Shown: positions 2 through 61,586, numbered from the stretch's first letter. The stretch is 64,000 nucleotides of DNA from an uncultured Bacilli bacterium (GCA_934153675.1 CAKPFG010000001.1:75426-139425), one strand, 5' to 3'. Numbers and translations: made by a program. Notes: generated by a model from the letters alone, not told the origin.

Positions 2-856
2 AGTAATAATAAATTACCAGAAGATTATCAAACTTTAAAGTTAGATTATAATTTAAAAAGTATCAAATGTAATGTTACCATTAATTATGATGGTACGGTA
101 TATTTAACAGAATGTATTCTTGATAAAAAAGAAGTAAAAGATTCAAATAATGAAGATGGATATTATCACTATGGTAAGCTTCAAAAAAAAGCCTATAAAA
201 TAGGCGATGAAGTCACATATAACGGTATTAATTTTTATGTTATAGAAAATAGTGATGAGAATAGTGATTCTGTAACACTACTAAAGGAAGAACCATTAAC
301 AGTAGCTGAAGTAAATAAATATGGCGGAGTAGGAACAGAAAATAACCACGTTAATATGTATGCAGCAAGGGATACAGGTGCCTCAAATTATCAAAAAGCC
401 TATGATAATAATGGATACGGAGGAATGGCATACTATTCAAGTTCAACATGTGGATATAATGGTTCTAAATGGATATCTGATGGATGTACGACAGATTATG
501 CAAAGAGTGAAGTAAAATATGTAGTTGATGCATGGGCCTTAGATAAACTAAAGGCAAGTGACCTAAAAGAGGATAAAACCGGCTATAGTGTAAGATTAAT
601 AACGTTGGATGACTTAGTAGATAATTTAGGATATGGCGATAATGGATACGGTGGAATAGAAATGTCACAAAATGGAGAAACCCCAAGTTGGTTATATAAT
701 GGTAAATATTATTATTATTGGACGATGAGTCGATATAGCACTTCCACTTCTCGCGTGTGGTATGTGAGCGACGGTGTCGGCGTGTACAACTACGATGTGT
801 ATTTCAACAGAGAAGCCGTGCGCCCTGTTATAACCATAAAAAAATCTGCTATCTAA
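2..856 (+). CDS. Prepilin-like/DUF1566-like surface protein, 5'-truncated by the window edge; paralog of 1159..2199; carries putative DGR variable region at its 3' end
   Basis: Frame 2 is open from base 2 through the stop at 854-856; the ORF-track start at 356 is internal. It shares near-identical blocks with the next gene (YHYGK..YKIGDE.TYNGINFYVIENSDE, DYNGYGGMAYYSSSTCGYNGS, VRPVITIKKSAI). Motifs 'GYSVRLITLDDL' and 'YYWTMS' resemble DUF1566 / Lcl C-terminal domain. Confidence 0.6.
   Translation, partial: SNNKLPEDYQTLKLDYNLKSIKCNVTINYDGTVYLTECILDKKEVKDSNNEDGYYHYGKLQKKAYKIGDEVTYNGINFYVIENSDENSDSVTLLKEEPLTVAEVNKYGGVGTENNHVNMYAARDTGASNYQKAYDNNGYGGMAYYSSSTCGYNGSKWISDGCTTDYAKSEVKYVVDAWALDKLKASDLKEDKTGYSVRLITLDDLVDNLGYGDNGYGGIEMSQNGETPSWLYNGKYYYYWTMSRYSTSTSRVWYVSDGVGVYNYDVYFNREAVRPVITIKKSAI
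731..829 (+). other. Putative DGR variable region VR1 (core; may extend upstream to ~690)
   Basis: Locally GC-rich stretch of NNC/NNT codons (cgc tat agc gac ggt gtc ggc tac aac ...) in an otherwise AT-rich gene. Differences from the paralogous segment at 2074..2172 are confined almost entirely to codon positions 1-2. The 3' flank is identical in both copies. Confidence 0.5.
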
Positions 857-1158
857 AAAGAAGGATAACAGAAATTAAAAAAGTAGAAAAGCTAAAAATA
901 TATTGTAAATGATACTTAATAATTTATAATAATTTGTTCACAAATTATTGTGATAGATAGCTTTGCTGTGATGAGCGATTTGCTATTTATAATATAGGGA
1001 GTAGTCTTACTAATATTTAAAAGAACTTTCAATAATTTATAAGTTATTGAAAGTTTTATTTATACAAAGGTAGTAATTATTACTACGATTTTTTATTTTG
1101 AAGTGGTAGCTTTTTTTAATTAATTATGCTATTATGAATACATAAGGTAGGAGGATAT

Positions 1159-2199
1159 ATGAAAAATAAAAAAGCATTTACATTAATAGAATTAATAGCC
1201 GTATTAGTAATACTAGCTATATTAGCACTAATAGTAACCCCAATTGTATTAAATATCGTAAAACACGCTAAGGAATCAGCTAATAAAAGAAGTGTTGATG
1301 CATACGGAAAAAGTATAGAACTTGCTGTAGCTAATTACTTACTAGATAAAGGAGAATTTCCAACAAACATAAGTGATTTAGAAATTGAATATTCAGGTAA
1401 AGAGGTTGTATGTAATATTTCCCTATTAAATGAAGATTCAAGTGTATACTTATCAGAATGCAAAGTAGGAAGTAGTGATGTAAAGGATAAAAATACTAGC
1501 GATGGATGGTATCACTATGGTAAGAGTACTAAAGTAACTTATAAAGCCTATAAAATAGGCGATGAAATCACATATAATGGTATTAATTTTTATGTTATAG
1601 AAAATAGTGATGAGACTAGTGATTCTGTAACCCTATTAAAAGCAGAACCATTAACAGTAGCTGAAGTAAATAAATATGGTGGAGTAGGAACAGAAAATAA
1701 CCATGTGAATAAAAATACCTCTGAATCAAAGGGAACAGCCGATGATTATAATGGATACGGAGGAATGGCATATTATTCAAGTTCAACATGTGGATATAAT
1801 GGTTCTACTAATTGGATATCTGATGGATGTACGACAGATTATGCAAAAAGTGAAGTAAAATATGTAGTAGATGCCTGGGTATTAGATAAACTAAAGATAA
1901 GTGACTTAAAAGAGGATAAAACCGGCTATAGTGCAAGATTATTAAGTCATGATGATTTAATTATAAATTTAGGATATATAGATAGTCTAGACACGGGTAA
2001 AACAAATCCATCAAGCAATGGAGAAACCCCAAGTTGGGTATATAATAGTAACTATTGGTATTGGACCATGAGTCAATATGGAGATTCCGCTTCTTGCGTG
2101 TGGCATGTGCTCGGCAATGGCCACGTGGGCTTCTACGGTGTGCATTACTACGAAGGTACCGTGCGTCCTGTTATAACCATAAAAAAATCTGCTATCTAA
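1159..2199 (+). CDS. Prepilin-type N-terminal cleavage/methylation domain protein with C-terminal DUF1566-like domain; putative DGR target
   Basis: N-terminus MKNKKAFTLIELIAVLVILAILALI matches the type IV pilin/pseudopilin class III signal (cleavage after G/A-F-T-L-I-E). RBS aggagg precedes the ATG. The C-terminus parallels gene 1 and ends in the same VRPVITIKKSAI. Confidence 0.75.
   Translation: MKNKKAFTLIELIAVLVILAILALIVTPIVLNIVKHAKESANKRSVDAYGKSIELAVANYLLDKGEFPTNISDLEIEYSGKEVVCNISLLNEDSSVYLSECKVGSSDVKDKNTSDGWYHYGKSTKVTYKAYKIGDEITYNGINFYVIENSDETSDSVTLLKAEPLTVAEVNKYGGVGTENNHVNKNTSESKGTADDYNGYGGMAYYSSSTCGYNGSTNWISDGCTTDYAKSEVKYVVDAWVLDKLKISDLKEDKTGYSARLLSHDDLIINLGYIDSLDTGKTNPSSNGETPSWVYNSNYWYWTMSQYGDSASCVWHVLGNGHVGFYGVHYYEGTVRPVITIKKSAI
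2074..2172 (+). other. Putative DGR variable region VR2 (core)
   Basis: Codon-for-codon alignment with 731..829: tgc/cgc, cat/tat, ctc/agc, ggc/gac, aat/ggt, ggc/gtc, cac/ggc, ggc/tac, ttc/aac, ggt/gat, cat/tat, tac/ttc, tac/aac, acc/gcc. Third positions are conserved and the segment is GC-rich. Confidence 0.5.
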
Positions 2200-2676
2200 A
2201 AAGAAGAATAACAAAAATTAAATAAGTAGAAAAGCTAACTGGTTAGTGGACAGTCTTAGATAGAGTATGTAATATAAAGGAGAAACAAGGGTAAAAATCC
2301 GGCCAGTGAGCTTGGATATGCCCTTGTTTAAATTTTAGAAAATAAAAAAAGCATACTATAAAAATTATTCAATAAAAATTGAATTTAAATTTATTATTAT
2401 GACAATATAAAAATTATGAATCATAGAGAACAAAATATAATTGTATATTTCTTAACGAATTAAAAACTAGATGAAAAAGGGTAAGCCCAGTATTAAAAAG
2501 ATAAAGAATACGAATTCTTTTTCTATTAGAGGAAGTGCGAGTAGAAATTTTTACATTTTTATAGCATTTCATTTTTTTTGCAAAATCAGATCTTAGTAAT
2601 GTAAGATAAAGAGAAACAGTACATAGAATAGAGTACATAGATTCAAAATATTTTAAAGATGCATTAACAGTTTTTT

Positions 2677-3278
2677 CTAGATAAAATCTATTAGATTTCT
2701 AAATTTTAAAAAGGCATTCAATACCACCAAAACGATACTGTAATCTTTTATAGAACGGTTAAGATTTTTAGCGTAAACAGGAACCCAAGGCTCATTAGTG
2801 TCAATAGAATCACTGATTATAATATTATTAGTATATTTAGAGTCTGTAATTTGAATTTTTTCGTATTTGATAGTACGATATTTGTATCTAGGCAAGTTTT
2901 GTAGAATTTTCCAAACTTTGTGGTCTTCATGTTTCATTAAGCCAGTAGAATTAAACCAACGATTAGCTAAGAAAATCAGTTCAAAATCGTCAGGAAAAAG
3001 ATTTGAAACATAAGAAATACCTTCTTTTATAAATTTTTCTTTAAAAGCGTCATGGCAATCTTTTTCTCGAAACAACGAAACCAAATAGGTATACCTTGTT
3101 TACCAATACGTATAGAAATCATGAAAACAGTATAATTATCATGAGAAAACATATAATCAAAAATAATATGAATTCTTTTATCGTTATGTTTCTTCTTGTA
3201 TGTTGAAATTACATACTTAATAACGAAGTTGAAACTCTTAAAGTTATAGCAAAAGAATTTATATTCAATAAAATTCAT
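2677..3278 (-). pseudogene. Frameshifted hypothetical gene: two overlapping minus-strand ORFs (3278..3027 and 3084..2677) read the same DNA in different frames
   Basis: The ORF ending FRCFEKKIAMTLLKKNL* and the ORF starting MVSLFREKDCHDAFKEKF overlap at 3027..3084, consistent with a single ~200-aa gene disrupted by a frameshift. No recognisable domain and no RT motifs. Confidence 0.3.
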
Positions 3279-3655
3279 ATCATCTATTTTTTCTTTGCTT
3301 TTTCATTTTTTCTTTAATAATTCCATTTACCTAATTTAGATTATTTTTGTTAATTATTAAATTGCTATAACTACCAGATATATATGTTTCAATTTTTGCT
3401 ATACTGGTTATTTTGTAATATGCCGCGTCAATTGATTTTTGAATGAGTAAATCTTTATTTATAAATGTTTCTTATAATATAACTCACTACGAGATAAGTA
3501 TAACATTTTTCTTTTAAATCACCAATTATTAATCATATTATTAATTATATTTATATTATCTTTCATTGATAAATTTGTCTGTTTTTGTTATAATGTCATT
3601 AGTTGATAGTATTAAGATATGCTTTTAGAAATTAATTGAAGGAAAGGACTTAAAG

Positions 3656-4429
3656 ATGGTAAATTATAATGATATTTTGAGGGAATTGTTTAATTATTAT
3701 CAAAGTATTTATCTCTATATCGAAAATGAGTATAGAATGATAATAGGTATTGATGATTTAATCATAAATTTCAAAAATGATTTTTCCATTTCTTCAGTTG
3801 AACAAGATGGTTTTATCAAGTATGATTATAATAATAAAAAATTTTTATTAAACTATAATAGTGGTATAAATAAATATAATAGTTTAACAAGAGAAAATTT
3901 TAAATTAAGTGCAAATGATAAATATAATAATAATATTTTTGATTATTATTCTAAAGATGATATATCATCAATAATACAGTTAAATAATATAAAATTTATT
4001 GATTATGTTAAAAGTGAATTTTTGAAAGAATATTTTACTAAAATCATTCATGTTATAAGTAAGGATAAAATGGAATATAGTGATGATTTTGGCAATTATT
4101 CTAAAAATAATGGTTACTATTTTAATCAAGTAATTTGTGAAATAGAATCTAGAATGTTTACAAAAAAGTATTATTTATTGTCTGTTCCTAGAACTTTGGG
4201 TAATAAAAAAATCATAAATATTGCTAGAAATCTTTTAAATAATAAAATAACAAGAGAGTTAATTTTAACTAAAAATGATAATTTATTGTTTCAATCATTA
4301 AAAAATAGTATGAAAGATTATATTACACAATATGAATATAATTGTTTTGAACAAGAATTTAAAATAAACTCAGGAACGTTGAATTATGAAATATATAATA
4401 GTATATTTAATAAAACATCCAAAGAATAA
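3656..4429 (+). CDS. Hypothetical protein (257 aa), N/K/Y-rich, no recognisable domain
   Basis: Long ORF with an RBS-like aaggaaaggac upstream; no motif recognised. Confidence 0.45.
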   Translation: MVNYNDILRELFNYYQSIYLYIENEYRMIIGIDDLIINFKNDFSISSVEQDGFIKYDYNNKKFLLNYNSGINKYNSLTRENFKLSANDKYNNNIFDYYSKDDISSIIQLNNIKFIDYVKSEFLKEYFTKIIHVISKDKMEYSDDFGNYSKNNGYYFNQVICEIESRMFTKKYYLLSVPRTLGNKKIINIARNLLNNKITRELILTKNDNLLFQSLKNSMKDYITQYEYNCFEQEFKINSGTLNYEIYNSIFNKTSKE

Positions 4430-4592
4430 AAAAAATTTAGTAACATGATTTTAGAAATGAAAAAAGGTCATAATTTTAGAAAAAATATTTTGTTTGAACC
4501 GATTAATTCATTTGGTTTTGCAAATAATATTTTATTATTATATTATTTGTGACATTGATTTTTAGAATTATAATTATAGGAGGTTAAGTACA

Positions 4593-7500
4593 ATGACTGC
4601 AGATGAAGTAAGTGTTTTGTTAAAAAAATTAATTCAAGATTTAAAAAATATTATAGATGATGTAAAGCAGTCTGATAATTATTGTAAATTAGAATCTAAA
4701 ATTGAACAATTTGATAATTTACCTGATACGGATGAAAATGAAAAACTGAAAGATCAATTATATGATAGGCAAGATTTATTAATAGAAAATGCAGTTAATA
4801 GTTTTCTTTCAAAAATACCTAAAAATCAGATAAAGGATATATTATTAACTTTAACACCAGAATTTATAGAAAGTAATCATTTAACTTTTGCAAATAATTT
4901 TGTTGACAGCGAATTTAAAATGATAATACAATACTTTATAGAGCATTTGGAAGATTTGAATCATCAATTTTATAACTCTTTACTTACTAATGATAGATTT
5001 ATTACATCTATTGAGCCTTCTGTTTCTTTAATTAATTCATTAATTAGTCATACAAATGATGAACAATCGATTTTATATTTTTTACAAAAGTATAGTAATA
5101 ATTTTGGTAAAGCAGATGTTAAAATAGATGATTTTAATATAAATTGTAATACAGAATTTGGAATTATTATTTTTAATATAATTAATTCTTTTAATTATTC
5201 TGAACAATTTAAACTTAGATTATTAAATGATAGTAATTTTCTTCCTTATTTAAGTGAATTTTCAATAAAGCAAATAATTATGCAATCTAATTTACCTCAA
5301 AAAAAGAGATATGATTTTTTATTAACTGAAAGTGTATTTGAGAGATTATCAAATTTTAATTTTTCTGAAGTATTAAGTTCATTATGTAATAATATTAACG
5401 ATTTAATTTTACTTTTAGATAATAAAAAGCTATATGACAAAATAAATTTTGGTTATCTTTTAGGTAATGTCAGAATTAACGAAGAAAGTTTGTCTATAAT
5501 TCTAAACGATGATAGGATTATGAAAAAAATGGATTGGCTAAATATAGAAACATTTTTAAAAGTAAATCCTTATATAGATTTTGAATTAAAAAAGAAAATA
5601 TTATTTAATGAAAAAATATATGGTAGGTTAAATGATTTAGCTGTTGCAAATATATTAACTTCTAAATATTTGACGAAAGAACAAAGAAAAGAATTGTTGG
5701 ATAATCCTAATATTGCAGTTTTTTTAAAAAGTGTAGATGTCATAAGTACATTATTAGAAGAGAACACTTTATCATTAGAAGAGAAAATTTCAATTATTAA
5801 AAACAAGAGATTTGTACAATATATTGATAATAGAATACTAGAAAAATTTATGATGAATCCAAATTTAGAATTATCTATAGCTACTGATATTATTTCAGAT
5901 AAACGATTATTCTATCTATTGATTGATGAATATAATGAAGAATATAATCCAAAGAATACTAATAATAAGGGCCCATTTAAATATGATAAATATGAATATA
6001 TGCAAATGTTGCTGAAAAATAACCCTTATTTAGCACGAACTTTTTCTTTTGAATTGTTAAAAGATGATATTTTAGATTTAGGTTATGACTTTATTGAGAA
6101 AATAAGCAGATACCCACAAACGGCACGTAAAATAGCATCGATGTATGGACATTTTAGTTCTCCTTTAATTTTTGAACAAATGAGTAGAGTAATTATGAAT
6201 TCTGTATATGCTTCAGAAATTGATGTTAATTTATTTATTAATAAATTAATTGAAATGAATAATGATAATTCTCATTATAACAAAGATGTAAAAAAGAGGA
6301 AGAAATTATCAACAATAAGACATAATGCACATCTTGATTGGAATCAAATGACACCTGAGAGATGGAAGATACTTACTGAAGTTGGATTGAGAGATATTAG
6401 TTCTTATTATAATGGAATTAGTATGACTATGTTTGGCGTGATTAAAGATGATGTAGATATATCTTTGAATATTTTGCCGGATATAAATAATATGTATGAT
6501 ATAGATAATTTTTATCAACGTAGATTATTATTATGTGATGAGGTGTTTCAAAAATGTTTAAATAACAATGACTTAAATGGTGCAATTAATGTATATTTAA
6601 ACAAATATTTTAGTATTAATATCCAAGAAGCAGAGCAAATAGTAAGAATGTATGGAACATCCATTGATCAATTTAGTAGTAATAAAAATTATGATATGCA
6701 AGTTAAATATGTAAAAAGCATAAAAAAAATTTTGGAAATAACAAAAATTAGGACTATTAAACAGTGTTATATGGATAGTAATATTCAACCGTTATCATTT
6801 GATGAAAATATATATATTGACCAATCTATTAGAAAAATATTTAGTAAGAATATATCCGATAGTACATTTAAAATTGATAGTAATATGCAGCCGACTTTTA
6901 TAGAAATACCATTTAATATTAATGGGGCAGGCGTTATACAAAAAATACCTGTCTATGAAGTAGGATTGGATTTTAAAATGTTAATTCATAGTACGGATGC
7001 CTATGGATCAATGGAATTAATAAATAATAATTATTTTGATTCTTGGAATAAAAGTGGTAGAAAAAGTAATCATGGAATATGTTGTTCATTTATATCAAAT
7101 GATAATATGGGGATGGCAGCAGTTAATGATGTTTTATTTGGTTTTTCAAGTTGGGATGAAAAAGCTATGATGAAAATTGCTCCATATGATATATATTCTT
7201 ATAATGATGAATATGAGATACAAGAAGGTAGACCATTAACTTTTATGTCTGCCCAAGATATTATTAATAATACACGTCATACACATAATGAGATGTCTTT
7301 AGAAAGATTTGAATTAAGAGATAATTTAAGGACACCTGAATGTCAGTACATTCAACCAAGTTATGTTATTATATATAGCGATATGAGTGATGTGATAAAA
7401 GCAAAGGCCGTTAAATGTTCAAATGAAATGAATATTCCAATTGTATATTTAGATAAAGAAAAAATTGTTTCTAATGAGGTTGCTAAAATTGACAAAAAGA

Positions 7501-8651
7501 TTGCTGAATTATATTCAATAGATACTAATATTGAAAGAAAATTGCAGTTAGTAGAGCAAATACTAGTATCACATGAAAACAATAGAAGTGGGTTAAGAAT
7601 GACAAATAGTGATTGGGTAGAACAGTATTTTCCAACTTTAAAAATAAAAAAGGTATTTACTGATTTAATAATTTATATGCAACAGGAATATAAAAGAACA
7701 CAAGATATTAGTCTTTATTCTCGATATAGTTTAATGTTAATGGATATTTTAGATAAAGAAAATGAGAAATTTAATGTAGCAATGGAGAATGTTCAAAGAA
7801 AAAATTATATTGATATACCAATAGATGATTATAAAAAATTACTGATGCGATTTATAAATACTAATTTTTGTCATACTAATATTCCAAAATTAGAAACAAT
7901 TGTTCAAAGTTCAAAAAATGATGATTTAAATACTCCATTATCTGAAACACTGAAAACAATTGATATTGATGAAATACGTAAGATAACAACAGATATGATT
8001 CAGAAGAAATTGTATGTTAATGATGGCAAAAATCATAATATAGGTCATATTGAAAGAGTAATATTATTATCAAAATTAATAGGAAATAATGAATTGAAAA
8101 CTGAAGATGAAAAAATAGATAAACATGCAGTTGGGTTATTAATTGAATGTGCTAAGTATCACGATTGTGGTCGATTGAATGATAATATTGATAAAAATCA
8201 CGGTAAAAAAAGTGCTGAAAAAATGGATGAGTTTTTAGCAAAAGATGGATATTCTGATGAAGACAGAAAAATTATGCAAATTGTAGTAGAATATCATGAA
8301 ATGAAAGATGATGATTTTAGATTTGAAAAATTGTGTGAGAAGTACAATTTGAATAAAAATAAAATAGAATATGTCAAAAAAATTGCCAATTGTTTAAAGG
8401 ATGCAGATGCATTAGATAGAACTAGATTTAAAAATCCAAACGCTAAATTAGATAGAGATTTATTAAGATTGTCGTCATCAAAAGATTTTGTATTAATAGC
8501 GGAAATGTTAAATCGTGAATATCAAATTATTGATAGAAAGCAGTTTGAACATTTATGTAATCAAATAGCAAAAGAACAAAGTATATTAAATAATAATAAT
8601 TTAGTAAATAATGATAAAATTGACCAAATGAAACATGAAAGGAAAATATAA
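4593..8651 (+). CDS. Very large (1352 aa) protein with C-terminal HD-domain phosphohydrolase
   Basis: RBS aggagg 7 nt upstream. C-terminal motifs HNIGHIERV ... AKYHDCGR ... VVEYHE ... DALDRT match the HD superfamily (H..HD..H..D). The N-terminal ~1100 aa are helical repeats of unknown function. A cysteine/histidine-containing segment (NHGICCSF..THNE) sits mid-protein. Confidence 0.7.
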   Translation: MTADEVSVLLKKLIQDLKNIIDDVKQSDNYCKLESKIEQFDNLPDTDENEKLKDQLYDRQDLLIENAVNSFLSKIPKNQIKDILLTLTPEFIESNHLTFANNFVDSEFKMIIQYFIEHLEDLNHQFYNSLLTNDRFITSIEPSVSLINSLISHTNDEQSILYFLQKYSNNFGKADVKIDDFNINCNTEFGIIIFNIINSFNYSEQFKLRLLNDSNFLPYLSEFSIKQIIMQSNLPQKKRYDFLLTESVFERLSNFNFSEVLSSLCNNINDLILLLDNKKLYDKINFGYLLGNVRINEESLSIILNDDRIMKKMDWLNIETFLKVNPYIDFELKKKILFNEKIYGRLNDLAVANILTSKYLTKEQRKELLDNPNIAVFLKSVDVISTLLEENTLSLEEKISIIKNKRFVQYIDNRILEKFMMNPNLELSIATDIISDKRLFYLLIDEYNEEYNPKNTNNKGPFKYDKYEYMQMLLKNNPYLARTFSFELLKDDILDLGYDFIEKISRYPQTARKIASMYGHFSSPLIFEQMSRVIMNSVYASEIDVNLFINKLIEMNNDNSHYNKDVKKRKKLSTIRHNAHLDWNQMTPERWKILTEVGLRDISSYYNGISMTMFGVIKDDVDISLNILPDINNMYDIDNFYQRRLLLCDEVFQKCLNNNDLNGAINVYLNKYFSINIQEAEQIVRMYGTSIDQFSSNKNYDMQVKYVKSIKKILEITKIRTIKQCYMDSNIQPLSFDENIYIDQSIRKIFSKNISDSTFKIDSNMQPTFIEIPFNINGAGVIQKIPVYEVGLDFKMLIHSTDAYGSMELINNNYFDSWNKSGRKSNHGICCSFISNDNMGMAAVNDVLFGFSSWDEKAMMKIAPYDIYSYNDEYEIQEGRPLTFMSAQDIINNTRHTHNEMSLERFELRDNLRTPECQYIQPSYVIIYSDMSDVIKAKAVKCSNEMNIPIVYLDKEKIVSNEVAKIDKKIAELYSIDTNIERKLQLVEQILVSHENNRSGLRMTNSDWVEQYFPTLKIKKVFTDLIIYMQQEYKRTQDISLYSRYSLMLMDILDKENEKFNVAMENVQRKNYIDIPIDDYKKLLMRFINTNFCHTNIPKLETIVQSSKNDDLNTPLSETLKTIDIDEIRKITTDMIQKKLYVNDGKNHNIGHIERVILLSKLIGNNELKTEDEKIDKHAVGLLIECAKYHDCGRLNDNIDKNHGKKSAEKMDEFLAKDGYSDEDRKIMQIVVEYHEMKDDDFRFEKLCEKYNLNKNKIEYVKKIANCLKDADALDRTRFKNPNAKLDRDLLRLSSSKDFVLIAEMLNREYQIIDRKQFEHLCNQIAKEQSILNNNNLVNNDKIDQMKHERKI

Positions 8652-8848
8652 TGAATTATACAAATGAAATAGATAATAATAAAGATGTACAAAAAGCTGA
8701 TAATTCAAATCAAACTAAATATTTTGAGTATAATGTTAAAAATAAAATAATTACAAAATTAATTGAAATTGATAAAAGTATTGATCAGTCTTATATTGAT
8801 AATAATGAAAGAATTAACACTATAAAAATGATTTATAAAAAATGGTAA
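8651..8848 (+). CDS. Small hypothetical protein (65 aa), translationally coupled to the HD-domain gene (ATGA overlap)
   Basis: Start overlaps the stop of the upstream gene (taATGa); no recognisable domain. Confidence 0.35.
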   Translation: MNYTNEIDNNKDVQKADNSNQTKYFEYNVKNKIITKLIEIDKSIDQSYIDNNERINTIKMIYKKW

Positions 8849-8878
8849 CATTTGTTATAATGATTATAGGAGGAATTT

Positions 8879-9367
8879 ATGATTTATACAAGTAGTCATG
8901 ATGCTTTTAAAACAAATAAATATATAACATATGCGATTTCTGGTAATCGTGGTAAAGAGGCTAATTACGAAGGAAATTGTTATCCTAAATTGGCACCAAA
9001 ATTATCATTTTGGAAAGTATGGCATGATAATATAGGAATTATTCCTGAAAAACAAAACAATGAATATTATATTAGAAAATACTGGGAGATGGTTTTATCA
9101 AAATTAGATGTAGTAAAAACTTACCGTGAACTTGATAATTCAGTTTTACTTTGTTATGAAAAAAATATAGATTTTTGTCATAGGCATATTGTTTCAGCGT
9201 GGTTCGAAATTTTTTTATCTGTTCAAGTTTATGAAGTTAAAGCACATAATTCTATTATAGAATTTGTAGAAAAGCCTGATTATATAAAAAAATATTTATA
9301 TGAAATTATCAAAAATATAGATTTAGAAAAAAGTGATAATATAAAAATTCTTACTAAACATAAGTAA
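8879..9367 (+). CDS. DUF488-family protein
   Basis: RBS aggagg; MIYT..H N-terminus and a C-terminal LLCYEKNIDFCHRHIVSAW block (C....CHR) typical of DUF488 (PF04343; YeaO-like). Confidence 0.55.
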   Translation: MIYTSSHDAFKTNKYITYAISGNRGKEANYEGNCYPKLAPKLSFWKVWHDNIGIIPEKQNNEYYIRKYWEMVLSKLDVVKTYRELDNSVLLCYEKNIDFCHRHIVSAWFEIFLSVQVYEVKAHNSIIEFVEKPDYIKKYLYEIIKNIDLEKSDNIKILTKHK

Positions 9368-9436
9368 AACAATATTCTTTTTTATAAAAAATATGAAGAT
9401 TAATAAAAATTATGATATAATAAATATGGTGATATC

Positions 9437-10087
9437 ATGGGAAAGATAATAGTAGTTGAAGGTGCTGTTGATGGCATTGGTAAAAGCACTCAATATAATA
9501 AATTATATGAATATTTATCGTCTAAATATAAGGTTTATAAATATCATTTTCCAACTTATGATAAATATCAAGGACTTGCTGTTATTGAATATTTAAAAGG
9601 TAATTATGGTGATATAAATAAACTATCTCCATACTTTATTAACAGTTTGTATGCTATGGATCGAGCAATTACTTATATTACGGAATTAAAAAAATATTAT
9701 GATGATGATTATGTTATATTACTTGATAGGTATACAACATCTTCTATTATTTATCAATCTTGTTTAATAAATGATAAGCAAAAACGACTTGAATTTATAA
9801 ATTATATAACAGATTTTGAATATAATAGACTTAATCTTCCAAAACCCGATAAGGTAATATTTTTAACCGCTGATTTTGACGTAATTACAAATTTAAGAAA
9901 TTTAAGAAGCTCGAATGATGGAGTAAAAAATGATATTCATGAAGAAAATATAGATTTTTTAAAAAAAGTTTATGATAATGCCAATTTCATTGCAAAATAC
10001 TTAAAGTGGGATATTGTTGATTGTAATTCTAATGGTCGGATGGATAGTATAGAAAACATTTTTACTAAAATAAAGAGCAAAATATAA
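9437..10087 (+). CDS. P-loop nucleotide/nucleoside kinase of the dTMP-kinase / deoxynucleoside-kinase family
   Basis: IIVVEGAVDGIGKST Walker A in the thymidylate-kinase arrangement; LLDRYTTSSIIYQ corresponds to the DRY..S..AYQ lid/substrate motif. Confidence 0.6.
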   Translation: MGKIIVVEGAVDGIGKSTQYNKLYEYLSSKYKVYKYHFPTYDKYQGLAVIEYLKGNYGDINKLSPYFINSLYAMDRAITYITELKKYYDDDYVILLDRYTTSSIIYQSCLINDKQKRLEFINYITDFEYNRLNLPKPDKVIFLTADFDVITNLRNLRSSNDGVKNDIHEENIDFLKKVYDNANFIAKYLKWDIVDCNSNGRMDSIENIFTKIKSKI

Positions 10088-10716
10088 TTATCAAATTATA
10101 TAATATATTTTCTTATTACATTTAAATATGTTAGTGTAGAACAAGTGTGAAGATTTTTCTAAAAAAGATTTATAATTGAATTAATTTTACAATTAGAAAG
10201 TAGATTGGTCAATATAATTCTTTTTAAATATATTTAATACTTCTAAAAGAAAGTAATTCTGATAACTTATATTATCACTAGGGTTATCAAAAAAGGAAAT
10301 AGAAGTGTTTATATTATATTTTAACTAATGATTAGAAGTAAGTTTTTTATCATCTTTGAAAATGTATTTTAAATGTTTTATAACATAATAAAATAGGTCA
10401 AGAACAAGTTTTGCATTAAAAACAATTAGTATAGTTTTTAATACCAGTACTTATCAACAGATATAAATATGACTTTAAACTTATTAATATCATATTTTTT
10501 TTTTACATAGTCAAATATTATTTTTTCCAATTTTTCATATGTTAGTTTAGAAGAAGCAAGGTAATGAATATTTTTAAGCTTTTTTCTTTTTTTATTTGTT
10601 TATAGGTATTGTTATATAAATCTCCCCATTTTGGAAATATTATCTTTAAATATCATGGATTTGACACTATTAAAAAAATGTGCTATCATACTTCCTACAA
10701 AGAGGGGGATTACAAT

Positions 10717-11395
10717 GAAGGATTGTAAATATGAAAAATTAACAAATGAAAAATATGAGGAATTATTAGAACAATACGATAATTCTACTGTTCAAATTTG
10801 TGAACAAAAAAATGAATTTTTAAATAGTGTGTACAGTAATGAGGATAGAATCAAGGAAATTTATGATGAACTTGATGAAAATGAAAGTAAAATTGAAAAA
10901 GTAAAATATGAATTAAGAAAAGTAGAAAGTTCGCTAGAACATAATCGTGATGATATAAGAAAAATAGAAAGTCATCATGAAAGTTGTTTAGAGGCAAAAA
11001 ATATTTGGAATTATCAATTTAAAAATGGTATAATTGATGAGGAAAATTATTTAATGGCCAATAAAAGTATTTTAAATAATATGAAAAAAGATAAAGCTGC
11101 TTTTTTGAAACACAAAACAATAATTAATAATTTAAATGCTTTAAAAAAAGATTTGATTTGTCAATTAAATAAATTGAAAGAAAAGAATTCTCAATTAGAG
11201 AATGAAAGAAAATTTCTTTCTAAAAATATAAAAATTACCAATAAGAATATTAAACGTTGTGACCAAAATACTGATAGTATTAATGCAACTAGAATGATTG
11301 TTGATAAAATGTATTTAAAAGTTGACGATAGTCAAGATATTGAATCTAGTATATTTAGTCCAAAACAACGTAAATTAAAACAAAAAAGAAAATAA
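10717..11395 (+). CDS. Coiled-coil hypothetical protein (ORF open from 10631; start at 10717 preferred from RBS agaggggg)
   Basis: K/E/N-rich heptad-like sequence; no catalytic motif. Confidence 0.45.
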
Positions 11396-11423
11396 ATAAC
11401 ATATTTTCTTTTTTTGTCAATTC

Positions 11424-11972
11424 TTATATTAATCTTAATTCATATTCTTGATAAAATTGATGATTTGGATCAATTCTATCATAAAATAAAATGCCGTTTA
11501 AGTGGTCAATTTCATGCTGAAATGCAATAGATAATTCTTCGCGAGCTCTAATTTTTATCTTTTTACCATTTAAATCGTATCCTTCAACGGTTACTCTTGC
11601 ATATCTTTTCACGTGTCCTTCAACCTCACGATTTACGCTTAAGCATCCTTCACCAGCTTCTGCTGCTATCATTTCGTTTGAATAACTAACTATTTTTGGA
11701 TTAACAACAACATATTCATCAAAGATACCAGTTTCAACTTCATGTACAATAATAATTATTCTTTCATTTATTCCAAGTTGTGGAAAAGCGAGCCCCATAC
11801 CTGGCCTTAAATTGTACTTTTCAGCATATTTTTCAATTTGACTATATGTTAGTTCATCTATAGCTCTTTTAATTAAATTTTTATATTCTTTCTTTAATGG
11901 AAATGTTGCATCAACGCTAACCTTGCGTAGTGCTTTTTCTTTTTCATCTAAAATATTTAATTTTTTAAACAT
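11424..11972 (-). CDS. def: Peptide deformylase
   Basis: Motifs GMGLAFPQLG, EGCLSV and QHEIDHLNG (the three PDF metal/active-site boxes). Start at the MFKKLN ATG (11972) with RBS ggtgg; ORF open to 11999. Confidence 0.85.
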   Translation of the reverse strand: MFKKLNILDEKEKALRKVSVDATFPLKKEYKNLIKRAIDELTYSQIEKYAEKYNLRPGMGLAFPQLGINERIIIIVHEVETGIFDEYVVVNPKIVSYSNEMIAAEAGEGCLSVNREVEGHVKRYARVTVEGYDLNGKKIKIRAREELSIAFQHEIDHLNGILFYDRIDPNHQFYQEYELRLI

Positions 11973-12098
11973 AAAACCACCGAAGATATTATAGCACAAA
12001 ATATATAAAAATAAAAACCCTAATTCAATACAAAAATGAATTAGGGCCTTATTTTTCTTAGTGTTTTCTTTTTGTTGAAAATTTAAAAATGGTTTTAA

Positions 12099-12266
12099 TT
12101 AATTACGAAAGTTATTTCCGCCCCAAGCACGAGCACCAATAACTATTACTAACAATATAAATAACACTAATATTATAGCTGCACCATAAGAAGTTCCATA
12201 TCCGTTACATCCTGAATAGCCAGCTGGATATCCACCGTATCCTTGATATCCACCATAATAATACAT
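12099..12266 (-). CDS. Tiny YjcZ-family membrane protein (55 aa; TIGR01732-like), not in ORF track
   Basis: Minus-strand translation MYYYGGYQGYGGYPAGYSGCNGYGTSYGAAIILVLFILLVIVIGARAWGGNNFRN; RBS ataggaggg; G/Y-rich head plus the conserved AAI.LVLFILL.I.IG tail. Confidence 0.55.
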   Translation of the reverse strand: MYYYGGYQGYGGYPAGYSGCNGYGTSYGAAIILVLFILLVIVIGARAWGGNNFRN

Positions 12267-12390
12267 ATAAACCCTCCTATCTATTCAATATATTTTATTT
12301 TTTTAATTCAATTTTGATTATTAGAATTACCTATTTTTTTATTTATTGTCAAATTAAAAAAAACATGATATCATTATAATAGGTGATATC

Positions 12391-13542
12391 ATGCGAAAAG
12401 CGTTGAAGGATACTGATAAAATTCTTTTATTTATAACAATAGTACTAAGTTTATTTGGCCTTTTTAATATTGTAACTGCATCGAGTAGGGAAGCTGTTAT
12501 AAATTTGGATCAGTCAATTTATTATTATTTTTATAGACATTTAATAATTTTAATAATAGCTCTTTTTGCTAGTTTAGTAGTAATAAAAATTCCTTTAAAA
12601 AAATATTATAAATTTATTCCATTTTTATATTTTACTATATTAGGTTTAAATTTATTTTTAGTAGTTCAGGGTCAAGCCACTAGAGGAGCATCCAACTGGA
12701 TTAGTTTAGGATTTTTTAATTTACAACCAAGTGAATTTTCTAAGGTTATTATGATATTGTGCCTTTCTTATATGCTTGAAAAATTTAATAAAGTATTAAA
12801 AAGTGATAAGATAAGTCATTTGAAATATTTGCTTATAATAATTTTTATTGGTTTTCCTATAATATTATTAGTATGTTTGCAAAAAGATTTAGGAACCGCT
12901 ATTATATTAGCTGTAATTTTCTTCGTTATTTATTTTACTAGTCCAATTACTAGTAGTGATAAATTAAAAACAATTGTTATTGGTATATTCTTATTTTTAA
13001 TATCATTTATGGGGCTTTTTATATGTAAGGGAAATCCATTAACAAAGGCACAATTATCTAGGTTTAATTATTATAATCCTTGTAGTAATTATACTACTAC
13101 TGGTTATCAGGTATGTAATGCCTTTATTGCTATTAATAAGGGAGGTCTATTTGGTCTTGGAATAGGTAAAAGTACGCAAAAGTATTCTTATATACCAGAA
13201 CCACATACAGATATGGTATTTTCTATTATTTCAGAGGAAAACGGCTTACTCGGTGGTAGTTTAATATTTTTATGTTATATCATTTTAATTTATCGTATAA
13301 TACGTTTATCTAGAATTACTGATACTATAAAAAATAGGTATATATGTATAGGTGTTGCAACATATATTTTTATGCATATTGCAATTAATTTAGGTGGTTT
13401 ATTTGGTCTTATACCATTAACAGGAGTCCCATTACCATTTTTATCATATGGTGGTAGTTTTACTTTATCACTTTTAATAGCGCTTGCTTTAGTTCAGCGA
13501 GTTTATATAGAAACAAAAAGGAGAATGTCAAATGCACGATAA
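12391..13542 (+). CDS. SEDS-family peptidoglycan glycosyltransferase (FtsW/RodA/SpoVE family)
   Basis: 10-TM protein with family motifs NWISLGFFNLQPSEFSKV, PEPHTDMVFS, PLPFLSYGGS. Confidence 0.8.
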   Translation: MRKALKDTDKILLFITIVLSLFGLFNIVTASSREAVINLDQSIYYYFYRHLIILIIALFASLVVIKIPLKKYYKFIPFLYFTILGLNLFLVVQGQATRGASNWISLGFFNLQPSEFSKVIMILCLSYMLEKFNKVLKSDKISHLKYLLIIIFIGFPIILLVCLQKDLGTAIILAVIFFVIYFTSPITSSDKLKTIVIGIFLFLISFMGLFICKGNPLTKAQLSRFNYYNPCSNYTTTGYQVCNAFIAINKGGLFGLGIGKSTQKYSYIPEPHTDMVFSIISEENGLLGGSLIFLCYIILIYRIIRLSRITDTIKNRYICIGVATYIFMHIAINLGGLFGLIPLTGVPLPFLSYGGSFTLSLLIALALVQRVYIETKRRMSNAR

Positions 13543-13766
13543 AACGAAAGATGAAAATACTAAAAAAGATGTAAATGAGTTATTAGATGATTATTTTGAT
13601 TTTAGTAGTTTAGAAGAGGAATAAAATTTCAAAATTAATATTTAATACAAAAAATATTGCATTTTAAATAAATATAGTGTATATTATTTATGTTACTTAT
13701 TCTTGGTTTTGAGTAGTCTCCGACTCATTACTGGGTTTAAGCTTATATAAGGAAAGGAGAATTTGA

Positions 13767-14036
13767 ATGGCTTTAAATAAAGAAAAGAAAGCAGAATTGG
13801 TTAAAAAATTTGGAAAAAATGAACAAGATACAGGTTCTATTGAAGTACAAATTGCTATTTTAACTGAAGAAATTAATTCTTTAACTAATCATTTTAAAGA
13901 ACATAAACATGATCATCATTCTAAAAGAGGACTACTTAAGAAGGTTGGTCAAAGAAAGAGTTTACTTAATTATTTAATTAAAAATGATGTTACTAGATAT
14001 CGTAAAGTTGTTAAAGAATTAGGTTTAAGAAAGTAA
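13767..14036 (+). CDS. rpsO: 30S ribosomal protein S15
   Basis: 89 aa; [16 protein letters not shown]...[24 protein letters not shown] signature; RBS aaggagaa. Confidence 0.95.
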
Positions 14037-14044
14037 TTATATTG

Positions 14045-14075
14045 GACACTCTTTTTTTTGAGTGTCTTTATTTTA
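14045..14075 (+). terminator. Intrinsic terminator/attenuator hairpin between rpsO and pnp
   Basis: gacactc-tttttttt-gagtgtc stem-loop followed by tttatttt, immediately upstream of the pnp RBS. Confidence 0.6.
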
Positions 14076-14085
14076 AGGAGGAAGA

Positions 14086-16215
14086 ATGAAAAAAATATAT
14101 GAATTAGATTTTAGGGGAAGAAAATTAGTTGTAGAAATTGGTGAACTTGCCAAACAAGCTACTGGTTCTTGTTTAGTAAGATACGGTGATACTGTCGTTC
14201 TTTCTACTGTTGTAGTAAGTAAAAATGCTAATGTTTTATCTGATTTCTTTCCTCTAATGGTTTTATATCAAGAAAAATTATATTCTGTTGGCAAAATACC
14301 AGGTGGATTTATAAAAAGAGAAGGACGTCCAACGGAGGCAGCAACTTTAGCAGCTCGTATGATAGATAGGCCAATGAGACCAATGTTTCCTGAAAATTTT
14401 AGAAATGAGGTACAGGTTGTAAATACTATTTTGAGTGTTGATCCTGATAATTCTCCAGAAATGGCTGCTATGTTTGCTTCTTCATTAGCAACATCAATTA
14501 GTAAAATACCTTTTGATGGTCCTATTTCTGGTGTTAAAGTAGGTAGAATAAATGAAAAATTTATCATTAATCCAACTGTAGATGAAACTAATAATTCTGA
14601 TATAGATTTAACTGTTGCTGGAACAATAGATGCAATTAATATGGTAGAAGCAGGTGCAAAAGAAGTAACGGAAAGTGAAATGCTTGATGCATTAGAGTTT
14701 GGCTTTGAAGCTATAAAGGAATTGAATCAGTTTCAGAAAAAGATTATTGATGATATTGGTGTAGAAAAAATGGAATATGAAGTATTAGATATTCCAGAAT
14801 ATTTAAAAATAGATATTAGTAATATGTGTAGAGATAAATTAGATTCTGCACTTAGAATTAAAGGAAAACTTGAAAAATATCAAGCAATTGATAATGTAAA
14901 AGAAGAAGTAATTTCATACTATGAAAATAATAATAAAGATTTAGAAGAAAAAGAATTAACTATTTTACTTACTAAAGTAAAATTAGTATTGGAAAAGATA
15001 GAATATGATTTATTTAGAAGTATTGTAGTAAAAGAAAAATTGCGTGCTGATGGAAGAAATATGGATGAAATTAGACCATTATCTGCAAGTGTTGATTTGC
15101 TTCCAAGGACACATGGATCTGCTTTATTTACACGAGGTGAAACTCAGAGTTTATCTGTAACAACGCTCGGTGCATTAGGAGAGCATCAAATTTTGGATGG
15201 CCTTGATTTAGAAACAGAAAAAAGATTTATGTTGCACTATAATTTTCCTCAATTTTCAGTAGGAGAAACAGGCCGATATGGAGCCCCTGGAAGAAGAGAA
15301 ATAGGGCATGGTGCTCTTGGCGAACGAGCTTTAGCACAAGTTATACCAAGCGAGGAAGAATTTCCTTATACTATCCGTGTTGTATCTGAAATATTAGAGT
15401 CAAATGGATCATCGTCTCAAGCTAGCATTTGTGCAGGTTGCATGAGCCTTATGTCGGCTGGTGTTCCAATCAAAAGTCCAGTTGCTGGAATTGCAATGGG
15501 ATTAATTACTTATGGTGATGATTATACTATTTTAACAGATATTCAAGGAATGGAAGATCATTTAGGCGATATGGATTTTAAAGTTGCAGGTACGAAGGAT
15601 GGAATTTGTGCTTTACAAATGGATATAAAAATAAAAGGAATTACTAAAGAAATATTACAAGAAGCATTATCAAAGGCAAAAATAGCTAGAATGAAGGTAT
15701 TAAAGGTAATGCTTGATACAATTAAAGAACCTAGAAAAGAAGTAAGTAAATATGCTCCAAAAACATTATCATTTATGGTTGATCCAGAAAAAATAAAAGA
15801 TATTATAGGTAAGGGTGGAGAAATGATTACAAAAATTATCCAAGATGCAAGTGGCGTTGTTAGTGTAAATGACGTAAATGCTGTTAAAGTTGATCTTGAA
15901 GATGATGGCAAAGTAATTATATATCATAATAATAAGGAAATAATTGAAAAAACAGCTAAAATGATAAAAGATGTTATTCGTGTTCCAGAAGAAGGAAAAA
16001 TATATAAAGGAAAAGTTGTTAAAATTATTGACTCTGGTTGCTTTGTTGAAATATGGCCTGGATGTGATGGAATGGTACATATTTCAGAACTTGATACCAA
16101 AAGAGTTGATAAGGTTATAGATATTGCTAATGTTGGCGATGATATGATTGTAAAATGTTTGGGATATGACAAAAAGGGAAGATTGAACTTATCTAGAAAA
16201 GCCGCTTTAAAGTAA
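14086..16215 (+). CDS. pnp: Polyribonucleotide nucleotidyltransferase (PNPase)
   Basis: 709 aa; two RNase PH domains, a KH domain and an S1 domain (GKVVKIIDSGCFVEI..DGMVHISEL). Confidence 0.95.
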   Translation: MKKIYELDFRGRKLVVEIGELAKQATGSCLVRYGDTVVLSTVVVSKNANVLSDFFPLMVLYQEKLYSVGKIPGGFIKREGRPTEAATLAARMIDRPMRPMFPENFRNEVQVVNTILSVDPDNSPEMAAMFASSLATSISKIPFDGPISGVKVGRINEKFIINPTVDETNNSDIDLTVAGTIDAINMVEAGAKEVTESEMLDALEFGFEAIKELNQFQKKIIDDIGVEKMEYEVLDIPEYLKIDISNMCRDKLDSALRIKGKLEKYQAIDNVKEEVISYYENNNKDLEEKELTILLTKVKLVLEKIEYDLFRSIVVKEKLRADGRNMDEIRPLSASVDLLPRTHGSALFTRGETQSLSVTTLGALGEHQILDGLDLETEKRFMLHYNFPQFSVGETGRYGAPGRREIGHGALGERALAQVIPSEEEFPYTIRVVSEILESNGSSSQASICAGCMSLMSAGVPIKSPVAGIAMGLITYGDDYTILTDIQGMEDHLGDMDFKVAGTKDGICALQMDIKIKGITKEILQEALSKAKIARMKVLKVMLDTIKEPRKEVSKYAPKTLSFMVDPEKIKDIIGKGGEMITKIIQDASGVVSVNDVNAVKVDLEDDGKVIIYHNNKEIIEKTAKMIKDVIRVPEEGKIYKGKVVKIIDSGCFVEIWPGCDGMVHISELDTKRVDKVIDIANVGDDMIVKCLGYDKKGRLNLSRKAALK

Positions 16216-16574
16216 AAGTTAAATAAAAAGTTAGAATATAATGATGTGAACCCCAATTAATAGACAGCATAAAAAACTAGTATATTAAAAAAAATTAGAG
16301 AAATTATTTTTCTCTTTTTCTTTCGCGTACATTGAGGAAAATCTAGTGTTTTTTTAGTATTTTAAATTTTTCTTAGGTAAAATTAGATTCATTTATTCAT
16401 CTAATTTTTAATCCTATAATTTTTGGATGATGCTTTTTTAATCCAAGTAAATATGTACTAGATGGAATATTATATTATTTTGATACATATCTAATAGACA
16501 TTCCTCATTTAATCTTACTTATAATTTCAAGTTTTAAATTATCAGAATATTTATTAAATTTTTATTCTTTTGCT

Positions 16575-60563: not shown

Positions 60564-60592
60564 TGACAAAATAGAAAATAAATGATAATATT
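60564..60592 (+). promoter_or_regulatory. Sigma-A-like promoter upstream of the ORF-free GC-enriched segment (ttgaca - 17 nt - taatat with upstream tg)
   Basis: TTGACA at 60564-60569; aaatgaTAATAT at 60581-60592. Confidence 0.35.
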
Positions 60593-60599
60593 TAGTTTG

Positions 60600-61202
60600 T
60601 AATGGCACATTATTCTAGTCAATTACATTTATTATGAAGACGGGATTAAAAAACCGTACATTAGCACATCTGTGAAGCTTTTGGTGCTTGCTTCTTACGC
60701 CCAGTTTGGGGTGGGTGCTGGAAGAATTAATGTTGGGCGCTCGTAATGGCATACGATTCCGACCCACCATTTATTTGAGACCTTTCTTTGTGTTTGGCCT
60801 ATACGTGTATACTGATGGACCGGATACGAACAAGGATTAAACCTATTTGTGGCGAAAGTTATGAATAGTGTAGCTTGCCTTGAGTGATATATGGGGATTA
60901 ACGTATAGTTGATATTATCTAGCTAATAATTGTAACTGTTATGAAACATTTATTGCAAAAGAGACTAATAATAAATGATTGTAGAGGAAAACTCCTAGAG
61001 TGACATTAATATAGGATTACAGTACGTACTAAGTGGTAATCAAGTCATATATCTGGCAACACTATATCTTATTCTTTAAAGGGGAACCACTTATTGGTAA
61101 CGATAAGTAGAATATGGGGAAATCCAACTTGACCTAAGACGTAAAGTTAACTTTATTAATTGCCATATAGAAGTATAAAAAGGTCTAAGACCTTTTTATT
61201 TT
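60600..61202 (+). ncRNA. Candidate large structured ncRNA (~600 nt), OLE-like
   Basis: ~40% GC versus ~25% for flanking DNA. Stops in all six frames (only a 63-aa antisense ORF nearby). Multiple local and long-range complementarities (ggtgggt 60706-12 with acccacc 60763-69; cttat-tggtaacga-taag hairpin). Bounded by the promoter above and an intrinsic terminator at 61177-61202. Followed by a small 4-TM protein gene. Confidence 0.4.
61177..61202 (+). terminator. Intrinsic terminator at the 3' end of the candidate ncRNA
   Basis: aaaaaggtc-taa-gaccttttt hairpin followed by tattttat. Confidence 0.6.
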
Positions 61203-61586
61203 ATAAGAAGAAGGTTGAAAATAAAAATATCAGTTAAGGCATTAGCAATATTGACATTAGAAACTAACTAATCGCTGCAACTAATTAAATCTTCAGTAAA
61301 AGTATTAAATGATTTAGTTTGATAATCAGTTATATCTCTATCATTGGTTTTAAATATTAACAACAATAGTTTTTTTGTGAACATCAATACTTGCACAATC
61401 TTGGTAAACAATTTTAAGCATACAAAAATACTAAAGCAAAAGATAAAAATATTCACCACTCACCTCTACGTGCTTTTGTAGTATGCCTAATAACAGTTTA
61501 CTATTATATCAAAAAAATAATTATTTTAATTACAATGTGTGCCTTTCAGAGGACTGAAAGGACGAAGAAAGGAATGTTTGTTAAAA

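Follow-up and report, generated by a model that had tools for sequence, protein, structure and literature searches.

The 64,000-nucleotide stretch of DNA analysed here, from an uncultured Bacilli bacterium (CAKPFG010000001.1:75426–139425; referred to as the window), encodes a 1352-residue protein, which we call the giant protein and which belongs to a large undescribed family of proposed effectors. The unit that defines this family is a conserved module of ∼660 residues; in some members from related gut Bacillota, the module is the C-terminal cargo of toxins of type VIIb secretion systems (T7SSb). The giant gene (4593–8651, + strand) is the central member of a three-gene cassette. It is preceded by the gene of a 257-residue protein (3656–4429, +), here called the partner, and followed by a translationally coupled open reading frame (ORF) for a 65-residue microprotein (8651–8848, +). 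The initial annotation, which was made from the sequence alone, had joined these three ORFs with a DUF488 gene and a thymidylate kinase-like gene into one accessory island. All five ORFs (3656–10087) lie on the + strand, exactly at the positions it had given; the last two are bystanders of the cassette.

The conserved module and its type VII secretion contexts

The giant protein was aligned with its two most distant matches, P0015 and P0016 (P numbers denote homologue proteins and L numbers homologue loci on other contigs). Only residues ∼440–1100 are common to them; both matches have other N-termini and contain no HD domain. The giant protein consists of three parts, the helical N-terminal region (residues 1–439; 4593–5909), the module (residues 440–1100; 5910–7892) and the HD phosphohydrolase domain (residues ∼1120–1320; 7950–8552), all encoded on the + strand. 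The N-terminal region contains ten copies of a recurring LL.N..F-type motif. One clean hidden Markov model (HMM) of this region matches the giant-HD clade, the HD-less protein P0022 and, internally, P0052 only; besides P0022, no alternative cargo was seen on the N-terminus of the window clade. The HMM of residues 440–1100 matches all the relatives as a single unit, with hmmsearch envelopes of ∼600–660 residues.

To determine the size of the family, 1.84 billion representatives were searched exhaustively with HMMER, with clusters defined at 50% identity. The search returned 862 clusters at E ≤ 1e-3 and 346 clusters at E ≤ 1e-30; the proteins are 169–4358 residues in length. Among the 175 members in hand, the module is located no more than 60 residues from the C-terminus in 122; it is followed by an HD domain in 42, two of which carry two HD domains, and by other extensions in 10. 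The first 250 residues of these 175 members fall into 57 BLAST clusters. The HD domain had been taken as the only recognisable module of the giant protein; it is in fact an add-on, degenerate in several members, and residues 440–1100 form the conserved core. The family has no entry in Pfam, PADLOC or the PDB, and is abundant in metagenome-assembled genomes (MAGs) of Bacillota from the human, rabbit and ruminant gut.

Judging from gene content, three independent contexts tie the module family to type VIIb secretion. P0015 (locus L007) is encoded behind three WXG100 genes and one DUF4176 gene, the 2747-residue member of L053 is encoded behind two WXG100-like genes, and DUF4176 genes lie on both sides of the gene for the 2278-residue member of L019. 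Proteins of the DUF4176 family serve as chaperones for LXG toxins exported by T7SSb (PMC12478183). None of the relatives in these contexts matches the Pfam LXG model, so their link to type VII secretion rests on the gene neighbours.

L019 provides the strongest evidence for the secretion link. The array (4786–16418 of URPE01000002.1, MAG UMGS1217) contains, in order, one DUF4176 fragment, the 2278-residue gene, one DUF4176 gene, a 991-residue gene and one ADP_ribosyl_GH gene. The two large proteins share 669 of 682 N-terminal residues (98%), and then diverge. The 2278-residue protein continues for ∼1600 residues beyond the shared N-terminus, with the module at its end; the 991-residue protein ends in an ADP-ribosyltransferase (ART) domain (ADPrib_exo_Tox, E 4e-26), and its gene is followed by the ADP-ribosylglycohydrolase gene. 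This is the standard layout of polymorphic toxins, with the module-bearing tail in the cargo position. No obvious immunity gene was seen behind the module-bearing toxin of L019. The array resides on the same MAG contig as L011, one of the giant-HD homologues.

Three loci (L019, L036 and L037) have an ADP-ribosylglycohydrolase gene beside a module gene; NUDIX genes are found in this position in L009, L019 and L036. The glycohydrolase of L019 is explained by the ART paralogue. In L036 (3310–4797) and L037 (7026–7976), the glycohydrolase gene abuts module genes without ART, and L036 carries a NUDIX gene as well; no ART relative was found in either locus. These two cases, which may moreover be close relatives of each other, do not suffice to assign ADP-ribose chemistry to the module. 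An ART or NADase identity, suggested by the glycohydrolase and NUDIX neighbours, was considered for the module and rejected: the L019 glycohydrolase belongs to the ART paralogue, the ART motif (R-S-E or H-Y-E in canonical order) is absent, and neither the ART models of Pfam nor the ART and PARP structures in Foldseek gave any match. L037 also contains two divergent module genes (825–3821 and 7983–11090), located 4 kb apart on one contig. Beside P0016-type module genes, we noticed one family of 127–134 residues without Pfam match (L009 721–1125, L024 11375–11773 and L061 4868–5251); it precedes the module gene in two of these loci and follows it in the third, and is a possible cognate factor of the P0016-type subfamily.

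In the AlphaFold2 model, which has a predicted local distance difference test (pLDDT) score of 84.3 and a predicted template modelling score of 0.83, the module is composed of one helical part, one α/β domain (residues ∼768–953; 6894–7451, +) and one helical bundle. The elements of the α/β domain are arranged in the order β-β-β-α-β-β-α-β-β-α-β. Across 161 diverse representatives, the most conserved residues of the module are all located within or beside this catalytic-looking domain: Glu900 (100%), Asp866 (99%), Pro922 (99%), Phe851 (97%), Trp818 (96%), Arg905 (96%), Asn899 (92%) and His827 (90%). Such a near-invariant polar constellation, combined with a confident fold prediction, is what would be expected for an enzyme. 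The segments NHGICCS (826–832) and TRHTHNE (894–900) lie in the most conserved stretch of the giant protein; neither the cysteines of the former nor the histidines of the latter (THTHNE) are kept throughout the family. Since Cys830/Cys831 and His896/His898 vary in this way, three candidate sites were rejected: a Ser-His-Asp triad, a papain-like Cys-His pair and an HxH metal site. The PD-(D/E)xK and Nudix-box assignments of the NE...ER segment were rejected as well; the predicted secondary structure does not fit either of them.

The profile and structure searches proposed in the initial annotation returned no Pfam, PDB or Foldseek match for the module. By sequence and profile (the giant protein, three profiles and the HD segment), no significant match was found in the PDB; the recurring sub-threshold match, ribose-binding protein (E 0.05), covers only one generic β-α-β unit. 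Scans of module-bearing proteins with Pfam gave no match on the module. When the scans were widened to 13 module proteins, to the 19 members of greatest length, to the N-terminal pieces and to recurring neighbours, almost nothing was found; the exceptions are single matches to Transglut_core and Intein_splicing, neighbours of HTH, kinase and integrase type, and the ART of L019. For the giant protein, the Pfam, NCBIfam, PHROG and PADLOC scans found nothing except one weak match of phrog_3921 to the HD region (E 0.0017). No relative of the module was found in 50,697 phage records or, by a scan with a single peptide pattern, in the 2.9 million viral contigs of IMG/VR.

Partner, HD domain and microprotein of the cassette

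By a word-indexed search, the giant protein was found to have 16 related clusters, 14 of which are ∼1330–1356 residues in length and 40–99% identical. The sole constant neighbour of the giant homologues in these contigs is a gene of 249–320 residues directly upstream, homologous to the 257-residue ORF of the window at 57% and 33% identity. In L001, L003, L006 and L011–L015, a partner homologue immediately precedes the giant homologue. The partner family also precedes P0024 (L034), a 1018-residue HD-less module protein, and hence goes with the module and not with the HD domain; with this protein included, the upstream position is kept across seven dereplicated groups. What had been listed as merely a hypothetical protein is therefore a real conserved partner, found directly upstream in other species. 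The tiny downstream ORF accompanies the giant gene inside the clade of the window, whereas across species only the partner gene does so. DUF488 and tmk homologues adjoin the giant homologue, in identical arrangement, only in contigs of the same species; none was found within 8–10 kb of the giant homologues in L001, L003, L006, L011–L017 and L038–L050. The five genes are therefore not one conserved system, contrary to the proposed five-gene island, and the real unit is the cassette of partner, giant and microprotein genes.

The partner has no match in Pfam, NCBIfam, PHROG or PADLOC. Its AlphaFold2 model (pLDDT 83.5) predicts a soluble α/β domain; the best Foldseek match of the model in the PDB (E 2.6, root-mean-square deviation (rmsd) above 15 Å) was treated as no match. 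Most partner homologues are 314–320 residues in length and end in a hydrophobic helix of ∼22 residues, which suggests that they are tail-anchored. The window partner stops after codon 257, at an in-frame TAA (4427–4429). Past this stop, the decayed remnant of the linker and transmembrane tail can still be read in frame (4430–4552, +), up to a second stop, TGA, at 4550–4552. Its translation, ...NMILEMKKG...EPINSFGFANNILLLYYL and stop, aligns to ...NDMIAMIKSN...NPVDSFGYANISIVFCLLVAF... of L006. The truncation is fixed, as all 22 partner alleles of the species cluster are 257 residues in length. Between two strains, the partner gene has 3 synonymous and 7 non-synonymous changes.

The giant gene differs from that of a 99%-identical strain by 16 synonymous and 12 non-synonymous changes. 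The resulting ratio of non-synonymous to synonymous rates (dN/dS) is roughly 0.2, which indicates that the gene is under purifying selection. In one sample of the same-species cluster, the giant gene appears split into P0233 (185 residues) and P0236 (1153 residues), both on the same 10.5-kb contig, owing either to disruption of the allele or to a fault in the assembly.

In the HD domain of the window protein, the ligand set is intact; it comprises His1152, His1190-Asp1191, His1203, His1235 and Asp1270, in addition to Asp1272 and Asp1275. The H..HD..H..H..D pattern of six ligands is typical of dinuclear HD phosphodiesterases. The window protein itself matches no Pfam HD model at E ≤ 0.1, and the HD segment has no match in the PDB by sequence or profile. 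PF01966 is matched by 12 of 29 homologues with the same C-terminal domain (best E 1.5e-8), and tblastn identified annotated 'HD domain-containing' proteins at ∼30% identity. By these homologues, the HD assignment made in the initial annotation holds, and closer alignment bears out the metal-binding residues. All eight ligand positions are kept in 40 of 47 aligned sequences, the window protein being one of the 47; they are degenerate in L015, L017/P0050, P0036, P0084 and P0087. Plasmid sequences match the giant protein in the HD region only.

The TAA stop of the giant gene (8649–8651) overlaps the ATG of the 65-residue ORF by one base (TAATG), as initially annotated, and the sequence AGGA is located ∼10 nt upstream. 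In random sequence of the same composition, an ORF that begins no more than 30 nt from a given point and runs for 65 codons or more arose in 0.27% of trials. One exact 65-residue sequence was found on 32 contigs. The microprotein is charged and helical, and contains the motif IITKLIEIDKSIDQSY; it has no match in Pfam, NCBIfam or PADLOC, and only a marginal one to phrog_13088. Across the loci, module genes are often followed by a small ORF that overlaps or adjoins their stop codon. Group A includes the ORFs of the window (65 residues), L006 (65 residues), L015 (62 residues) and L038 (47–50 residues); group B (41–45 residues) is found behind HD-less members, including L053 with its T7SS context. 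L015 has lost the HD ligands but keeps the microprotein, so the latter is not an immunity gene specific to the HD domain. The likeness to polymorphic toxin loci in which a C-terminal HD toxin precedes its immunity gene thus stands only in part: the polymorphic toxin side is supported by the WXG100 and DUF4176 contexts and the ART swap of L019, and the HD-specific immunity is not.

In L043, which was outside the training set, the group-A HMM also matches the 32-residue leader encoded by a prepilin-like gene that follows the giant homologue (E 0.011). This gene (L043 7486–8724) encodes a DUF6273-type homologue directly behind a giant-HD homologue, and its unusually long leader contains IIEKLDAIEEAIDKA. 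The leader looks as if a group-A microprotein gene had been fused to the pilin-like gene.

Neighbouring genes and surroundings

The DUF488 gene (8879–9367, +) is adjacent to the cassette and, outside the species, unlinked to it. It encodes a 162-residue protein which matches PF22751 (DUF488-N3a) with 33.2 bits against a cut-off of 27; no match to this protein was found in the phage collection. The same lack of linkage applies to the thymidylate kinase-family gene (9437–10087, +), whose 216-residue product matches PF02223 (Thymidylate_kin) with 71 bits against a cut-off of 27 and contains the GIGKST and DRY..S..YQ motifs. Both family assignments agree with those first proposed. The kinase scores below both NCBIfam dTMP-kinase equivalogs (93.7 versus 193, and 64.1 versus 83.25); it aligns over the full length, at 28–36% identity, to phage thymidylate kinases. 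It is plausibly the thymidylate kinase of the cell itself. With PADLOC-DB v2, DUF488 and tmk weakly match the candidate models PDC-M45C, PDC-M19A and PDC-M51B, the tmk match being confined to the P-loop (residues 1–30); none of the models matches the partner, the giant protein or the 65-residue ORF.

The window genome is that of a very AT-rich member of the Bacillota; its nearest relatives are gut MAGs labelled uncultured Tenericutes, Bacilli and Candidatus Faecimonas. The content of G and C is 18–20% across 3500–6000, a range that takes in the partner gene and the first third of the giant gene, compared to 25–33% in the flanking housekeeping genes. No integrase or phage gene was found near the locus. 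A promoter and terminator scan was uninformative, with 111 promoter-like sites against 90 expected in AT-rich DNA and 0 terminators.

Several other features of the window were noted. Upstream of the cassette, DUF6273-type proteins are encoded at 356–856 and 1159–2199, the second with a prepilin N-methylation motif. Downstream, 10631–11395 (+) encodes a 254-residue coiled-coil protein with weak matches to SMC, LmuB and PspA-type coiled coils, species-specific among the loci examined. The peptide deformylase gene (def) is located ∼3–4 kb downstream of the giant gene in two lineages (window 11424–11999, – strand; L003 17904–19031). In L003 and L012, def is fused to a P-loop kinase domain of AAA_18/Zeta-toxin-like type, forming an unusual 375-residue fusion protein. 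A full-length OLE (ornate large extremophilic) RNA is present at 60586–61182 (+), with 361 bits against a gathering score of 50, and is directly followed by an ORF at 61539–62111.

Possible functions and comparison with known systems

Our preferred reading, which we hold tentatively and at somewhat less than an even chance, is that the giant protein is a two-headed effector of toxin lineage, whose partner and small cognate neutraliser are encoded beside it. The α/β domain of the module would be an enzyme that uses Asp866 and Glu900, with His827, Arg905, Trp818 and Phe851 lining the site. It may hydrolyse a glycosidic or phospho-ester bond in a nucleotide-type substrate, and the HD head would act on the same substrate or on the resulting phosphorylated one. 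The coupled microprotein, made in step with the giant protein, would bind and neutralise it in the manner of an immunity protein or antitoxin. The partner, by its C-terminal membrane anchor in most species, would tether the giant protein or hand it over at the membrane; in the window species, this anchor would have been lost through the nonsense mutation. As no export domain was recognised, the giant protein may just as well act inside the producing cell as outside it.

Several observations weigh against this effector reading. Like its relatives in the secretion contexts, the giant protein has no Pfam LXG match (E ≤ 1); it also has no signal peptide and no other export domain. No WXG100 or DUF4176 homologue was found in the 64 kb by phmmer with the L007, L019 and L053 proteins, and no T7SS gene was seen there. 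The partner is encoded upstream of the giant gene and does not resemble the targeting factors known from T7SS. In the main human-gut clade (L001/L003), no group-A microprotein is present, and homology between groups A and B was rejected, as their similarity is not significant. The giant locus is chromosomal and syntenic inside the genus, where it is flanked by metK, a phosphodiesterase gene and an ABC transporter, and it is close to def in two lineages; this setting fits a resident cellular function as well as a conflict system. In addition, the reaction ascribed to the module is a guess, and the best Foldseek matches of its model, in the PDB (E 1.6, rmsd above 15 Å) and in BFVD (E 0.17, rmsd 24 Å), were treated as no match.

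Because the window protein has no LXG or export domain and the window no T7SS gene, an intracellular defence role is a live rival. The giant protein and its partner would then form an anti-phage or abortive-infection system, in which the helical N-terminus senses infection and the module and HD domain then destroy a nucleotide pool or nucleic acid; the toxin relatives would reveal only an effector domain shared between conflict systems. HD heads are frequent defence effectors, and toxin domains are widely common to polymorphic toxins and defence systems. The tightly coupled microprotein could serve as the antitoxin, and the split giant gene of one strain, together with the decaying partner, resembles what is seen in costly accessory systems. 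We nevertheless consider this rather unlikely, given that no PADLOC model matches any cassette gene, the neighbours are housekeeping or pilin-like genes and do not form a recognisable defence island, marks of integrases or mobile elements are absent, the module is missing from the phage collection and, by the single-pattern scan, from IMG/VR, and synteny within the genus is stable. Far less probable is the island of the initial annotation, in which the HD protein, DUF488 and the dTMP-kinase-like kinase would cooperate in a nucleotide-depletion or nucleotide-modification defence. The genes are co-directional and closely spaced, with the same order in other contigs of the species, and two of them weakly match PADLOC candidate models. 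The absence of DUF488 and tmk homologues near the giant homologues of other species largely refutes such cooperation; moreover, the tmk match spans the P-loop only, in a full-length thymidylate kinase-family protein that is plausibly the cell's own, and the three genes of the cassette have no PADLOC match.

An equally modest chance as for the anti-phage system is given to a lineage-specific enzyme complex with a housekeeping or physiological role in gut Bacilli of reduced genome, acting for example in membrane-associated nucleotide, envelope or second-messenger metabolism, from which T7SS toxins would have recruited the module. Purifying selection on the giant gene fits such a complex, as do the conserved chromosomal position that the locus has in the human-gut clade, next to genes for an ENPP-type phosphodiesterase, a nucleoside deoxyribosyltransferase and adenosine deaminase as well as metK, and the presence of def within about 3–4 kb in two lineages. 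The tail-anchored partner suggests a membrane-bound complex, and the six-ligand HD pattern is typical of phosphodiesterases of cyclic dinucleotides or Ap4A. However, the distribution is narrow and patchy, with only 16 giant-type clusters by the word-indexed search; the extreme shuffling of N-termini and the C-terminal position of the module are typical of effectors; HD ligands have been lost in some lineages and the partner anchor in the window species; and the gene is disrupted in one strain. It is likewise improbable, in our estimate, that the module represents a new enzymatic effector fold across gut Bacillota and the cassette a chromosomally fixed, non-secreted, membrane-tethered two-enzyme device of module and dinuclear HD domain for conflict or signalling, controlled by the 65-residue peptide and without described counterpart. 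A 'polyvalent protein' cargo gene of a prophage or conjugative element would agree with a large multi-domain protein with enzymatic heads, with the weak phrog_3921 match to the HD region, and with the name of the best BFVD row, a 'large polyvalent protein associated domain' protein at a non-significant score. We regard it as very unlikely: relatives are missing from the phage records and, by a scan with a single peptide pattern, from the viral contigs, plasmid matches are limited to the HD region, and the locus has no integrase or phage gene nearby.

The results matter in several ways. At least part of the module family is cargo of type VII secretion toxins. With its confident predicted domain, near-invariant constellation of Asp, Glu, His, Arg and Trp residues and lack of any structural neighbour, the module is a promising candidate for a toxin chemistry not yet described. 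What the giant-HD clade contributes is an HD phosphodiesterase fused to the module, a partner with a tail anchor and a microprotein coupled to the giant gene; together, they offer a route to the substrate and regulation of the module. For annotation, the gain is that a three-gene cassette has been separated from two incidental neighbours, DUF488 and tmk.

Four groups of known systems were compared with the cassette. The large polyvalent proteins of phages and conjugative elements are similarly very large, with several enzymatic heads; different from them, the giant protein has no relatives in the phage collection or, by the single-pattern scan, in the viral one, and the one structural match is non-significant. 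As in Tre1-Tri1-type pairs of ART and ADP-ribosylglycohydrolase, ADP_ribosyl_GH adjoins module genes in three loci; the glycohydrolase of L019, however, is located behind the ART-bearing paralogue and not behind the module protein, and the window has no such neighbour. The six ligands found in the window protein and most of its relatives recall the dinuclear HD phosphodiesterases (PgpH, HD-GYP and YqeK-type enzymes), whereas the window HD domain is fused to a toxin-family module, has no sequence match in the PDB, and has degenerate counterparts in some relatives.

Compared to the LXG toxins of T7SSb, such as the Tel toxins of Streptococcus intermedius and EsaD, the window protein has a private N-terminus without LXG match, no T7SS gene in its 64-kb surroundings and an extra HD domain behind the module. 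In place of a small helical hairpin, the upstream partner is a tail-anchored protein of about 250–320 residues; the cargo of ∼660 residues is far above the typical size of a toxin domain, and no known toxin fold was detected in it. The likeness to the LXG toxins lies in the relatives of the giant protein, which carry the same module at the C-terminus and are encoded behind WXG100 and DUF4176 genes. In L019, N-terminal scaffolds of 98% identity end either in the module or in an ART toxin, and a tightly coupled small downstream ORF is common in the module loci. The module, the HD fusion, the tail-anchored partner and the microprotein are undescribed in the libraries searched; the kind of effector to which they belong, the polymorphic toxin type, is already known.

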